A stretch of 64,000 nucleotides of DNA from an uncultured bacterium (GCA_963713855.1 OY970209.1:1-64000), one strand, 5' to 3'. Counted from the stretch's first letter, positions 32,164-37,495 are shown. The notes: generated by a model from the letters alone, not told the origin. Made by a program: numbers and translations.

Positions 32164-34302
32164 TTAGTCAAATAGCTTCTCTAATGGCTTATATGAACGT
32201 TTTTGCCTGACACTGAGGCCCAAAGCAAATTGCAAATCGCGATTAATATCATGATCATTGATAGGATTAGATAAGTTATATTCATAAAGAACTCTCGAAA
32301 TAAAGCGACTATGCTTTCCTGCCATTTCAAGCACGGGAAACATGATAGCAAAATCCCAACCCATCGAATAATAAGCACCATTATATAAAATGTCTTCACG
32401 GTCAATCTTCTGAAAGAGCCCTGCATAGAAAGTTCGCAAAGCGGTTGCAGTAAAATTCTCTCGCCTAAAAGAATTTTCTTCAATAACGGTATCTTCTATT
32501 TCTGCACCCCATCCGTGATCTCCGCTCGGCCAATATCTAAATTGTCCATAAGTCATCCAAACTTCAGGATCTTGATAGGCAAAATTGACATAAGAAAGCA
32601 CCCCATCATCTGAAAGCCAATCATCTCCATCAAGATTAACAACAATTGAACGAGGATCACAAAAATGCACCGCTTTATAGATATTAGCAAGTGCCCCCTG
32701 CCTTTCTAGGTTTTTAATAACAATACAGCGGTCTGACCAGCCTTTCTGCTTAATATAATCTTCAACCAATGATCCTGTGCCATCAGGTGAAGCGTCATCA
32801 ATGTACATTATTTTGATCTTGTTGGCCGGGTATTTTTGATTAAAGACAGAATCAAGATTTTTTTGATACCAGATTTTATTATTATATGAGGGTATTACAA
32901 CGACTATTGGCTTATAATCTACTTTTTCCTGTGCTTCAAGGCTGCTTATATGCCTATCTAAATTACCATATAAATGATTCATGTACGGATAGGTTTTTAT
33001 AAGACGTTGTACAACCTGTGCGGCTAAAGCGCAGTCGTTACTGCGGTAACATGCGCTTGCGCCAAGTAAATTATAACGCGTGTAATCGTACGCATATTTT
33101 TCAACAAAAAGCGTATCCTGCGTATCAGCAATCTCACACGCTTTTTTTGCAAAGACGTATCCGAGTTGCCACAGGTTATTATCGATGTAATATTCGGAAA
33201 TACGCACCAAAGGTTCAGCACGCTCAGGCCGCATATCATACGCTTCCAAATAATGACTTAATGCCATATCCCAAGTATAAGCATTATTTGTTTGAGCAAG
33301 CTTTGCCGTCAATTTCCCGAGACTATACTTTGCGTAAAAGTCTTCCTGATCATAACCTTTAAGCTTTGACCGCAGTTTAAAATAATAAATAGCTTCTTCA
33401 AAGCGTTCAAGAGCCTCATACGTACGAGCCAAATAAAATAAGTTGCGTGCACTCAAAGGATCTTGGCGATAATTTTCAAGAAAGTACTCAAGATCAGTTT
33501 CCCAACGTTTTTTAGTCTTTTCTTGGCCTTGTTGGTCCGGCCGGTATTCAAAATAAACCGAATCAGGAACTTTTTGATCTACGACAGGAACAAGCGCCTC
33601 ATGACGCCCCCCCAAATAACGAGACCCTGCCTTACATCGAATTAAGCGTGATTGAAAATTTGATTTATAAGAATCGCCAATGTTTATTTGATACGAAGAG
33701 CATCCTGCGGGTTTGCCGTCGCACATTTGATCATTTGCATGAGCCTTACAAAATTCCACTAACTTATCCGCATCATGCAAGTACCATTCCGCATCAAGCA
33801 TAAGCATAAAAGCCGCATTCGGAAAATAGTGCTCCACTAACTCAATAGCTCGATTACGTCCAACGTCGAAAGGAAACCACTTAAATGGCTTTTGCGAAAA
33901 TGGCCCCACTCTGTCAGCAAATGGCTCATGTTTGATACTATAATAAGGTACTTTTTCTTCCTTCAAATATGCCGACGCCACTTGGCCTGTTTGATCAGTT
34001 TTTGGTCCTGTTACATAAACCAAAAAAGCCTCTATTCCGCCTTTAACCAAGGGAGATAGTGTTTTTTGAATAGTCTGTTCCTCATTAGCCACCATAATGA
34101 CAGCTACAACGGGTAAGTGATGAGTAATAATCGCAGGAGCAGATGTATCATTTTTTTTTAAAAAAGCAGAAAAGCTATCGTTTTCATAAGAAAAAAATTC
34201 GTCATTTGGATAACAAATCTTCTCTTCAGAAAGCGTCAAATGAATGAACAAAAAGAGAGCTAAACTAATCTTCGTAAACAAATAGCTATTCATAAAAAAC
34301 AC
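32164..34302 (-). CDS. Multidomain glycosyltransferase: signal peptide - GT2/GT-A - TPR - GT2
   Basis: Domain 1 IMVANEEQTI...LMLDAEW...HE; TPR helices (RNLFYLARTYEAL, RPERAEPLVRI); domain 2 VVIPSYNN...YIDDASPDGT...LDGDDW. Confidence 0.88.
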   Translation of the reverse strand: MFFMNSYLFTKISLALFLFIHLTLSEEKICYPNDEFFSYENDSFSAFLKKNDTSAPAIITHHLPVVAVIMVANEEQTIQKTLSPLVKGGIEAFLVYVTGPKTDQTGQVASAYLKEEKVPYYSIKHEPFADRVGPFSQKPFKWFPFDVGRNRAIELVEHYFPNAAFMLMLDAEWYLHDADKLVEFCKAHANDQMCDGKPAGCSSYQINIGDSYKSNFQSRLIRCKAGSRYLGGRHEALVPVVDQKVPDSVYFEYRPDQQGQEKTKKRWETDLEYFLENYRQDPLSARNLFYLARTYEALERFEEAIYYFKLRSKLKGYDQEDFYAKYSLGKLTAKLAQTNNAYTWDMALSHYLEAYDMRPERAEPLVRISEYYIDNNLWQLGYVFAKKACEIADTQDTLFVEKYAYDYTRYNLLGASACYRSNDCALAAQVVQRLIKTYPYMNHLYGNLDRHISSLEAQEKVDYKPIVVVIPSYNNKIWYQKNLDSVFNQKYPANKIKIMYIDDASPDGTGSLVEDYIKQKGWSDRCIVIKNLERQGALANIYKAVHFCDPRSIVVNLDGDDWLSDDGVLSYVNFAYQDPEVWMTYGQFRYWPSGDHGWGAEIEDTVIEENSFRRENFTATALRTFYAGLFQKIDREDILYNGAYYSMGWDFAIMFPVLEMAGKHSRFISRVLYEYNLSNPINDHDINRDLQFALGLSVRQKRSYKPLEKLFD

Positions 34303-34380
34303 CCCTTAAACGGCTTCTCCATTATAGCTGCTGGCAAAAAAGAGTATATATTTTTTAGGGAATCTAGTGATTATTATGAT

Positions 34381-34420
34381 AAGAAAGAAAATGCCCTGGA
34401 CATTACTGTCCAGGGCATTT
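34381..34420 (-). terminator. Intrinsic terminator after the collagen-like gene
   Basis: 14-bp perfect stem AAATGCCCTGGACA-TTAC-TGTCCAGGGCATTT followed by a T-rich tail on the minus strand. Confidence 0.8.
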
Positions 34421-36333: not shown

Positions 36334-36625
36334 ACACTGCTCTCCAGTATCCGCGAGTATGCTAAAAAAATTAAATTCTCGATAGTGGATGTATAGTAGC
36401 ATGTAGAGCATCGCAAAGCTAGTATCGGTACGAATTAATTAAAGAATTATATTCATAGTTACAAAGCTTCTAGTTCTTGATGTATTGAATTCAGCGTTAG
36501 GTCCCATTTAATACAGAAATAAATTCAGCTAAAATTCTATTTTTGACCTCAATAATCTAAGATTAGAGCAACACCTGATAGCTGCTCTTACGATTTTTTA
36601 GAAAGCGTCTGAGATAATGAACGTC

Positions 36626-37495
36626 TTATTCTTGACCTTCTAAGGCAAATTCATGGAGCCAAGGCTCTTTATTGAAATGAGAAACATCTTCAGCAAAGCT
36701 TATTCGACCATACATCTCTCGCGTGTCAAGATATTGAGCAATTCCCTGCTTTCGTGCAACATCACTAAAAATAACGTACTCATAGCGATAGCTGTCATCA
36801 TCATAAGAAACCTTGTTAAGAACCTCATGTCTTACAAGATACGTACAATGCACTACAGGTACTTCGACTAATCCTTTGATTTCTTGTGACAAAAGCGGGA
36901 TATAAAACGGTGAATTTTCATAATACCCATTACGATCGATCGCAGCATGATAGTTTGAATAGAGAGAATTGCCGCCCATCCTAAGCAATGGCGCTACTAT
37001 CGGTAAATTGGATTCAACAAGCGCTGTAATAGTGTTAGGCTGAATAAAATTGTCGCAATCAGACACAAAATAATGGGACCCATGTTCAAATGCCCAAGTC
37101 ACCGACTTTTGTCGAATGCGACCTAAAACTTTAAAACGTTCACTATTCCACTCGTGTTGGCCGTATCGTTGAACTGGTGTTTCGACATCCGTATCATCAA
37201 AAAAAACTTCTGCATAATCTTCAGCCACCTTAGCAATCCACTCGCGAAGAACTTGAGCGGTGGTATCATTATTATTGTTAGTCCGTATATAAAGGTAGGT
37301 CTGTTTTTTAGGCCAGGCCTGATTTTGAATACACGAAAGATATAGTGGCAATGTATGAGCCTTATCTTTAGCAAGGATAGCAATCGTAACAAAATCATTT
37401 TTGAATAACTGCTCTGGAAAAACGTCTGCGTTACAGTAACTAATGGCCACAAATACTGTGAACATAAAAATAGAAAAACATCCTTTAAACATCAC
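36626..37495 (-). CDS. Secreted GT-A glycosyltransferase resembling the N-terminal domain of collagen galactosyltransferase COLGALT1
   Basis: IAILAKDKAHTLPLYL, YIRTNNNNDTTAQVLREWI, DCD (DxD), IVAPLL, YSNY, GYY, VPVVHCTYLV match the recalled COLGALT1/CERCAM N-domain pattern. Confidence 0.8.
   Translation of the reverse strand: MMFKGCFSIFMFTVFVAISYCNADVFPEQLFKNDFVTIAILAKDKAHTLPLYLSCIQNQAWPKKQTYLYIRTNNNNDTTAQVLREWIAKVAEDYAEVFFDDTDVETPVQRYGQHEWNSERFKVLGRIRQKSVTWAFEHGSHYFVSDCDNFIQPNTITALVESNLPIVAPLLRMGGNSLYSNYHAAIDRNGYYENSPFYIPLLSQEIKGLVEVPVVHCTYLVRHEVLNKVSYDDDSYRYEYVIFSDVARKQGIAQYLDTREMYGRISFAEDVSHFNKEPWLHEFALEGQE

Follow-up and report, generated by a model that had tools for sequence, protein, structure and literature searches.

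A collagen-like gene between two leader-bearing glycosyltransferase genes in an uncultured Dependentiae bacterium: a candidate export-tagged collagen-glycosylation module

In a 64-kb stretch of DNA from an uncultured bacterium (GCA_963713855.1 OY970209.1:1-64000; hereafter the window, with positions counted from its first letter), a gene for a collagen-like fibre protein lies between genes for two putative glycosyltransferases, a stand-alone GT-A enzyme of 289 residues (GT289) and a three-domain protein of 712 residues (GT712), and all three products begin with a signal-like segment. We consider it quite probable that this trio represents a collagen together with its own glycosyltransferases. 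With less assurance, we lean towards the enzymes acting outside the cytoplasm, and on a similar footing we are inclined to see the trio as an O-glycosylation module like that of SgtA and BclA3, shifted to the periplasm or the host side and using host nucleotide sugars.

The first-pass annotation of this DNA had described three co-oriented genes in which the collagen gene is flanked by two glycosyltransferases, and an open reading frame (ORF) call on the window bears this out at exactly those positions, with GT289 (36626-37495), the collagen-like ORF (34447-36411) and GT712 (32164-34302) all on the minus strand (Table 1). The collagen ORF is open to 36411 (654 aa) with its likely start at ATG 36333, where a GGAGA motif lies 8 nt upstream, and the probable starts of GT289 and GT712 are the ATGs at 37492 and 34293. 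Across the surveyed genome, which amounts to 1.52 Mb and is 91% complete, the sole collagen-like ORF is the one that sits between the sole GT-A/TPR gene and a GT289 gene. Three more GT289 paralogues lie in tandem at 1457.7-1460.9 kb, and paralogues of the GT712 GT2 domain are found at 439788-441362, 441642-443336 and 476868-478055.

Table 1. Features of the trio, in window coordinates
Feature	Position	Strand	Basis
GT289, stand-alone GT-A glycosyltransferase, 289 aa	36626..37495	minus	Homologous to the COLGALT1 N-terminal GT1 domain and the LH3 AC (accessory) domain
GT289 leader, residues 1-23	37427..37495	minus	MMFK, 16-residue hydrophobic core, CNA/D
BclA-type collagen-like protein, 628 aa from ATG 36333	34447..36333	minus	Pfam Collagen, E 2.8e-54
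Collagen leader, 19 residues	36277..36333	minus	Sequence inspection; Cys-rich N-terminal region beyond
Collagen-like region, ORF residues 88-462	35026..36150	minus	Composition, tandem repeats
C-terminal globular domain, BclA_C/C1q-like, with inserted hydrophobic stretch	34450..35025	minus	Alignment and profile
Terminator-like hairpin (15-bp stem, then T run), between the collagen stop codon, which it follows directly, and the start of GT712	34388..34421	minus	Hairpin scan and sequence
GT712, 712 aa: leader, GT-A, TPR-like, GT2	32164..34302	minus	Pfam, AF2 (AlphaFold2), structural matches
GT712 GT-A domain, residues ~61-262	33517..34122	minus	19-sequence alignment, AF2, structure search
GT712 TPR-like helical repeat domain, residues ~264-460	32923..33513	minus	AF2 helices 264-459; weak Pfam TPR at 271-309
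GT712 GT2 domain, Pfam residues 468-600	32503..32901	minus	PF00535, E 2e-19; motifs DDASPDGT, DGDD

The collagen-like region is built of 123 G-X-Y triplets, with Asn at X in 97 of them and Thr or Ser at Y in 79 and 26, respectively, so composed that 72 read GNT and 25 GNS; there are 9 Pro, 2 Lys and three G-A-G register breaks, and the underlying DNA carries 9-, 18- and 207-nt tandem repeats. As a triple helix this region would be ∼105 nm long. In Riftia cuticle collagen and in model peptides, triple helices are known to gain stability from glycosylated Thr at Y. N-glycosylation of the GNT/GNS repeat was considered and rejected, as the repeat holds no N-X-S/T sequon. Cys clusters flank the repeat, and the N-terminal region is Cys-rich, with Cys at positions 43, 66, 76, 80, 81 and 85. 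At the other end, the last 190 residues can be aligned with the C-terminal ends of seven further collagens from Dependentiae, and the resulting eight-member profile matches BclA (1wck, E 6e-13), 9h38_A (3e-17) and adiponectin/C1q (1e-6 to 1e-3). Pfam BclA_C matches six of the eight members, and the protein of the window itself scores E 6e-4 and 20 bits, below the 38-bit cut-off, its domain having an insertion. This relationship emerged just from alignment and profile; tblastn with the N- and C-terminal parts of the collagen gave no match at 1e-5 in the 79 bacterial loci that we compared (L001-L079, introduced below).

GT712 has the GT2-TPR-GT2 architecture that the first-pass annotation assigned to it, in the form of a SunS/ThuS-like GT-A domain, TPR-like helices and a Pfam GT2 domain. 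Pfam and NCBIfam give no family at cut-off for its first 300 residues, but an AF2 model of residues 1-460 made with 19 homologues (pLDDT 84.5) places a GT-A domain before TPR-like helices, and the best structural matches span both parts: SunS (7msp, Z 21.6 over 272 residues with an rmsd of 3.4; 7msn, Z 19.6) and ThuS (7msk, Z 19.1), with TPR-only proteins at Z 15-17. The elements VxxE, DTG..D.T, DA[E/D] and HE are invariant in the GT-A domain throughout the 19-sequence alignment. A comparable arrangement is described in passages of PMC7157674 for SgtA of C. difficile, which comprises a GT-A domain (aa 1-260) and four TPR repeats and initiates beta-O-GlcNAc on Thr/Ser of the BclA3 GPT repeats from UDP-GlcNAc.

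For GT289, Pfam and NCBIfam again give no family at cut-off. A phmmer search of the PDB aligned its residues 27-265 with residues 18-264 of the human COLGALT1 chain (E 2e-30), and with weaker scores found the LH3 accessory domain (E 3e-8) and mimivirus R699 (E 1e-4); in a Foldseek search with the AF2 model the top eight hits were COLGALT1 chains, followed by LH3. The alignment stops within the GT1 domain, GT289 has no match to GT25 (Pfam PF01755) at E <= 10, and the genome has none at E <= 0.01. The likeness to COLGALT1 that had been proposed for this gene can hence be kept for the N-terminal GT1 domain and must be given up for the catalytic GT25 half, which is absent from the gene and was not found in the genome. 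As to activity, the DxD motif of GT289 is D146-C-D148, and in a 160-row alignment D77, H114, D146, D148, H183, D187, H216, C217, E239 and D257 are conserved in each of five groups; the COLGALT1 alignment shows W, T and C in the human GT1 domain at three of the positions conserved in the GT289 family. Two GT289-like domains occur in tandem in one leader-bearing protein of 550 aa in L024 (9911-11560) and in G086.

The human domain is a reason to ask whether GT289 is an enzyme at all. Passages of PMC12003778 assign to human GT1 a structural role with Ca2+ and UDP-galactose (UDP-Gal) binding and no direct part in catalysis, calling it non-catalytic for want of the acidic residues needed by an inverting GT-A enzyme, and as far as those passages go, a BLAST search by the same authors with GT1 as query recovered animals and giant viruses, bacteria not being reported. 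By analogy GT289 could be a non-catalytic accessory that binds UDP-sugar and metal and docks or chaperones the collagen for GT712, a role that would leave the rest of our explanation intact and to which the fusion of GT289-like domains behind GT-A/TPR in Pseudomonadota and viral contigs would lend itself. We nevertheless rate it as rather unlikely, given that identity across phyla is 50-70%, that the DxD together with H183, H216, D187, E239 and D257 is conserved where human GT1 has lost three, and that 52 of the 79 bacterial loci carry GT289 without a full-length GT-A/TPR neighbor. Judged by the DxD, His and acidic residues that the family keeps, GT289 is probably enzymatically active.

The association of these enzymes with collagen was assessed in a scan of bacterial genomes that took one genome per species and gave 79 loci (L001-L079) with GT289 homologues of 50-70% identity, and in 79 viral loci. 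With a search distance of 10 kb, a collagen-like ORF is present at 26 of the 79 bacterial loci, the nearest being within 5 kb in 24 of them, and a profile search found a full-length GT-A/TPR neighbor at 27. The two go together: collagen occurs at 18 of the 27 loci with a GT-A/TPR neighbor versus 8 of the 52 without one (Fisher p 8e-6, a value to be read with caution, since related genomes do not count as independent). At the Y position Thr outnumbers every other residue in each of the 56 linked collagen ORFs, whether from bacteria or from viruses. GT-A/TPR and GT289-like parts are even fused into one protein in Pseudomonadota (L067, L069-L079) and in viral contigs (L082, L089, L093, L095, L096 and L109), often with a SAM (S-adenosylmethionine) methyltransferase behind, and the three parts of the trio recur, differently ordered, at three more Dependentiae loci (L011, L028 and L041), L028 with four collagen genes. 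Overall, the interpretation in the first-pass annotation is partly supported. Linkage of a transferase with a G-X-Thr collagen recurs in Dependentiae, Bacillota and Pseudomonadota, but none of the five Chlamydiota loci has a collagen gene within 10 kb or a full-length GT-A/TPR gene, and none of the ten giant-virus loci labelled GVMAG has a collagen gene within that distance, so that the triplet is not general in Chlamydiota or giant viruses. G-X-Thr collagen-like ORFs occur at 14 of the 79 viral loci, and several of their N-termini resemble tail fibres. Recurrent linkage and enzyme fusions are what now speak for the collagen-glycosylation module of the first-pass annotation.

Some further observations belong to this survey. 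In a phylum sample the GT289 gene is found in 29 of 201 genomes (14 of 120 genera), which makes it an accessory trait. In three related Dependentiae loci (L004, L007 and L021, ∼10000-13700 in each), the gene order is GT289 homologue, type IV pilin-like gene, collagen, prepilin-peptidase-like gene; the fibre may be linked to a pilus or to type II secretion there, or the pilin may be another substrate. Eight metagenome-assembled genomes (MAGs) labelled Pseudomonadota, Epsilonproteobacteria or Saccharimonadales (L003, L004, L012, L013, L029, L037, L041 and L042) share hit coordinates with genomes of the window's own order, and their submitted labels are probably wrong; L022, labelled Dependentiae, is likewise a genome of that order.

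Adjacency might nonetheless be functionally meaningless, the transferases being secreted effectors or general surface-glycan enzymes that modify host proteins or other glycoconjugates. This would suit the 25 of 31 loci with a leader-bearing GT289 homologue that have no collagen within 10 kb, among them all five Chlamydiota, as well as the three GT289 and three GT2 paralogues that lie far from any collagen gene in the genome studied here; two leader-bearing ankyrin proteins, one of them fused to GT2 and the other encoded beside the trio, are moreover typical of host-directed proteins. It would leave unexplained why the one collagen gene in 1.52 Mb is flanked precisely by the sole GT-A/TPR gene and a GT289 gene, why the GT-A/TPR and GT289 pair tracks G-X-Thr collagens in the locus counts given above, and why the trio is repeated at three other Dependentiae loci in other orders. 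We regard this alternative as improbable, and we retain the view that the trio is a collagen with its own transferases.

We then consider where the enzymes would act. Signal-like N-terminal segments on all three proteins, another element of the first-pass annotation, are seen on inspection as K/R followed by a hydrophobic core of 10-16 residues, a site with small residues at -3/-1 and then acidic residues, the sites being CNA/D in GT289 and SCNS/I and LTLS/E in the others; leaders were called by visual inspection and a crude heuristic. In the AF2 model of GT289, a helix at residues 6-23 is detached and the domain begins at residue 35. A lipoprotein anchor was rejected, ISYC in GT289 and FMSC in the collagen being poor lipobox fits, and better fits are seen in the GT289 homologues of L028 (LSAC) and L064 (LGC). 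A single gene for signal peptidase I and two for secretins are present in the genome.

What makes these segments informative is that they are add-ons that viral, Bacillota and fused proteobacterial homologues lack. A leader is present at 31 of the 79 bacterial GT289 loci (Dependentiae, Chlamydiota and one Bacteroidota MAG) and absent at the other 48 (Bacillota, three Pseudolysobacter MAGs and the fused proteobacterial proteins) and at all 79 viral loci. The GT-A/TPR proteins divide in the same manner, with a leader in nine of nine of Dependentiae type versus none of ten proteobacterial or viral ones. Collagen ORFs with leaders occur in L004, L007, L011, L028 (three ORFs) and L041, and the linked Bacillota collagens have a hydrophilic N-terminus, which is MEELGL... 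in several Paenibacillus loci. On a FastTree tree of the GT289 family (143 distinct of 160 rows, excluding L030 for an internal stop and L066 for a short match), the leader state needs 3 changes as compared with a mean of 31.4 on shuffling, with none of 500 shuffles as low, and 34 of the 35 leader rows cluster beside the Bacillota clade, support inside the group being low. The excluded L030 homologue (10001-10723, Neobacillus sp. PS3-12) has one in-frame stop and may be a pseudogene or reflect a sequencing error. Nested inside the leader-bearing clade are leaderless homologues (62-64% identity) from the Pseudolysobacter MAGs L014, L017 and L019, which could have lost the leader once transferred to a free-living host, or could be binning contaminants. 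The Cys content of the GT289 domain averages 5.1 in leader-bearing and 3.2-4.9 in leaderless groups; this does not separate them and lends no independent support to an oxidising location. Cleavable-type leaders on all three proteins, unlike in Bacillota, Pseudomonadota and viruses, suggest that glycosylation would take place after export.

The same segments could also be inner-face membrane anchors or the result of mis-called starts, with glycosylation completed in the cytoplasm before Sec export. The proteobacterial enzymes are leaderless while several of their collagens have leaders (L074, L078 and L079), which makes cytoplasmic glycosylation followed by export the ancestral logic, and the annotated GT289 product begins 10 residues later (P0001, 279 aa); further points in its favor come from sugar-nucleotide synthesis and from other enzymes of the genome, to which we turn below. 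The form of the trio's own leaders argues otherwise. Positive charge precedes the core and acidic residues follow, cores of 10-16 residues are short for a transmembrane anchor, small residues stand at -3 and -1, the same pattern with AXA-like sites is present in about 30 homologues, and AF2 predicts that the helix is set apart from the domain, past a disordered linker. We consider cytoplasmic completion unlikely for this trio and continue to favor action outside the cytoplasm.

The trio is not alone in carrying such extensions. N-terminal hydrophobic extensions precede the Pfam domains of many products of a glycosylation island at G000:C1 ∼435-492 kb (435000-492500) and of a ManC-like gene at 1060230-1061372. 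They are found on a GDP-mannose pyrophosphorylase-like protein (domain from residue 49), two Gmd proteins (from 38 and 65), an RmlD-like reductase, TylF/Methyltransf_24/FkbM methyltransferases, a GT90, several GT2, six GT4 and an ankyrin-GT2 fusion, and are lacking in GalU (1000740-1001567), GlmU (738520-739980) and one GT2 (470518-471453). The ankyrin-GT2 fusion (G000:C1 476868-478055) joins a leader, ankyrin repeats and GT2 in one protein and looks host-directed or ankyrin-targeted. No nucleotide-sugar transporter gene was found beside the trio; the genome has five EamA/DMT (drug/metabolite transporter) genes and a tandem TLC cluster, none of them near it. DMT is the superfamily to which the nucleotide-sugar transporters of eukaryotes and the SAM transporters found in intracellular bacteria belong. 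At two other loci (L009:13939-14895 and L023:8222-9157), a DMT/EamA-type gene adjoins a cluster of leader-bearing GT, Gmd and methyltransferase genes. The TLC cluster (G000:C1 915342-919561) consists of three tandem nucleotide-transporter genes with four Pfam matches, has an EamA pair upstream at 911.6-912.5 kb, and fits an energy and nucleotide parasite.

Several observations weigh against an extracytoplasmic collagen-glycosylation module, and we collect them here. To our knowledge, bacterial nucleotide-sugar GT-A transferases are cytoplasmic, and we know of no periplasmic nucleotide-sugar pool in bacteria. GalU and GlmU, which make the precursors UDP-Glc and UDP-GlcNAc, are leaderless, which would suit glycosylation in the cytoplasm. 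Some leader-bearing GT4 and Gmd products of the island have basic residues past the hydrophobic core and so fit membrane anchors whose catalytic domain stays inside the cell. Of the three leaders, that of the collagen is weakest: its core is short, and its score of about 1.9 falls under the heuristic threshold. The heuristic flags 431 of the 1144 ORFs of the genome (∼38%), which puts the odds of three of three by chance at roughly 6%. That rate is in line with the 44% of coding sequences with predicted signal peptides given, in passages of PMC6561590, for C. destructans, a cultured member of the Dependentiae that replicates in the host cytoplasm. With so high a background the three leaders are not in themselves beyond chance, and it is the comparison with leaderless homologues that carries the argument for export. 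With regard to the module itself, the strong terminator between the collagen gene and GT712 means that the trio need not be a single operon or transcript, and within the leader-bearing group a collagen gene is present at 6 of 31 loci and a GT-A/TPR gene at 7 of 31, so that many leader-bearing homologues work without a neighboring collagen. As for the enzymes, the AF2 model of GT289 is of low to moderate confidence (pLDDT 62), its human homologue is non-catalytic, and GT712 was likened to SgtA (CD3350) by the published description of its architecture. A complex prediction for GT712 (residues 58-460) and GT289 (30-289) scored 0.00, which has no bearing for or against binding.

Taking both sides together, we propose a mechanism in which we infer the initiator of the glycan, the order of addition, the sugars, the export function of the leaders and the site of action. 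The fibre would consist of a Sec leader, the Cys-rich N-terminal region, a ∼105-nm proline-poor (Gly-Asn-Thr/Ser)n stalk and a C1q/BclA_C-like head that would trimerise it. The GT-A/TPR part of GT712 is the most likely initiating transferase on Y-position Thr/Ser, and the GT2 domain of GT712 together with GT289 may extend the glycan with further sugars, or the order may be the reverse. In Dependentiae the Sec leaders would retarget the whole module, with glycosylation following export, be it in the periplasm, at the cell surface or within the host cytoplasm; the host cell would supply the nucleotide sugars used as donors, and SAM to the associated methyltransferases. Glycogen in the inclusion lumen of Chlamydia trachomatis is made by secreted GlgA on host UDP-glucose, a precedent for a Leloir-type transferase outside the cytoplasm, if one from another enzyme family (GT-B), with another secretion route and another product. 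Only tentatively, and as the more doubtful proposition, we suggest that Dependentiae and some Chlamydiota run an extracytoplasmic Leloir-type pathway resembling that of the endoplasmic reticulum and Golgi lumen, and that the animal GT1/AC domains descend from an active, collagen-linked family of bacteria and viruses. Life inside the host cytoplasm would, under such a scheme, bathe the periplasm in host nucleotide sugars, GTP, NADPH and SAM.

Collagen-plus-transferase modules as such are already known from SgtA-BclA3. In open-access papers and preprints, we did not find an export-tagged collagen/glycosyltransferase module in host-dependent bacteria, a regular pairing or fusion of the GT289 family with a SunS/SgtA-like GT-A/TPR enzyme, or a genome-wide set of leader-bearing sugar-nucleotide enzymes, and the C. 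destructans paper (PMC6561590) contains no occurrence of "glycosyl" or "collagen". A set of leader-bearing glycosyltransferases confined to host-dependent lineages would be a directly testable case of glycosylation outside the bacterial cytoplasm powered by host metabolites. The family also provides active-looking bacterial and viral relatives for the puzzling non-catalytic GT1/AC domain of COLGALT1 and LH3, which bears on the origin of collagen glycosylation, and it names candidate enzymes for the glycosylation of proline-free Gly-X-Thr collagens. A glycosylated fibre of roughly 100 nm is a likely host-contact structure of this uncultured group of parasites.

The trio has neighbors that we record for completeness. 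Directly downstream, positions 30678-31922 of the window encode a protein of ankyrin repeats whose N-terminus is signal-like, as is typical of proteins secreted to interact with the host. On the other side, at 37742-39718, a small ORF (167 aa), rich in Cys and with a leader, forms a pair with one for a protein of 484 aa that ends in ...GLAF, has no Pfam family and is possibly an outer-membrane protein. The pair is duplicated at G000:C1 1373587-1375424 (48% and 62% identity), and the 484-aa protein has seven further tblastn matches in the genome, two of them within the window at 47.7 and 49.7 kb.

Set beside known systems, the trio resembles SgtA-BclA3 of C. difficile, in which the gene for a GT-A plus TPR enzyme likewise stands beside that for a BclA-type Gly-X-Thr collagen with a BclA_C/C1q-like head. 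It differs in that GT712 adds a Sec-type leader and a GT2 domain at its C-terminus, GNT/GNS takes the place of GPT in the repeat, the module has a second enzyme of another family (GT289), and the organism is a non-sporulating diderm endoparasite. Proteins of the BclA family have a leaderless N-terminus and are assembled onto the exosporium in the mother cell, whereas the collagen described here has what appears on inspection to be a Sec-type leader. The closest fold match to GT712 is with SunS and ThuS, the S-/O-glycosyltransferases of Bacillus glycocins, which glycosylate polypeptides directly; identity is 14-18%, GT712 has a leader and a third domain, its candidate substrate is a collagen-like protein, and no glycocin-like peptide gene was seen here. 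GT289 shares whole-domain sequence and fold homology, including the DxD, with human COLGALT1 GT1 and the LH3 (PLOD3) AC domain (PDB 9evj, 8zgc and 6fxk), all associated with collagen-modifying systems, but it stands alone without GT25 and keeps conserved polar residues lost in the human domain. COLGALT1 acts on hydroxylysine in Gly-X-Hyl, whereas the likely acceptor here is Thr/Ser, and the ORFs from 28 to 42 kb include none that looks like a lysyl hydroxylase. The 123 triplets contain just 2 Lys and offer no hydroxylysine chemistry, so that O-glycosylation of Thr/Ser as in SgtA/BclA3 is the closer parallel. Finally, phages pair COLGALT-N-like transferases of the same enzyme family with Thr-rich collagen-like tail fibres in the same G-X-Thr combination; the phage and giant-virus versions are leaderless and act in the host cytoplasm, in contrast to the Dependentiae version, which is chromosomal and export-tagged.

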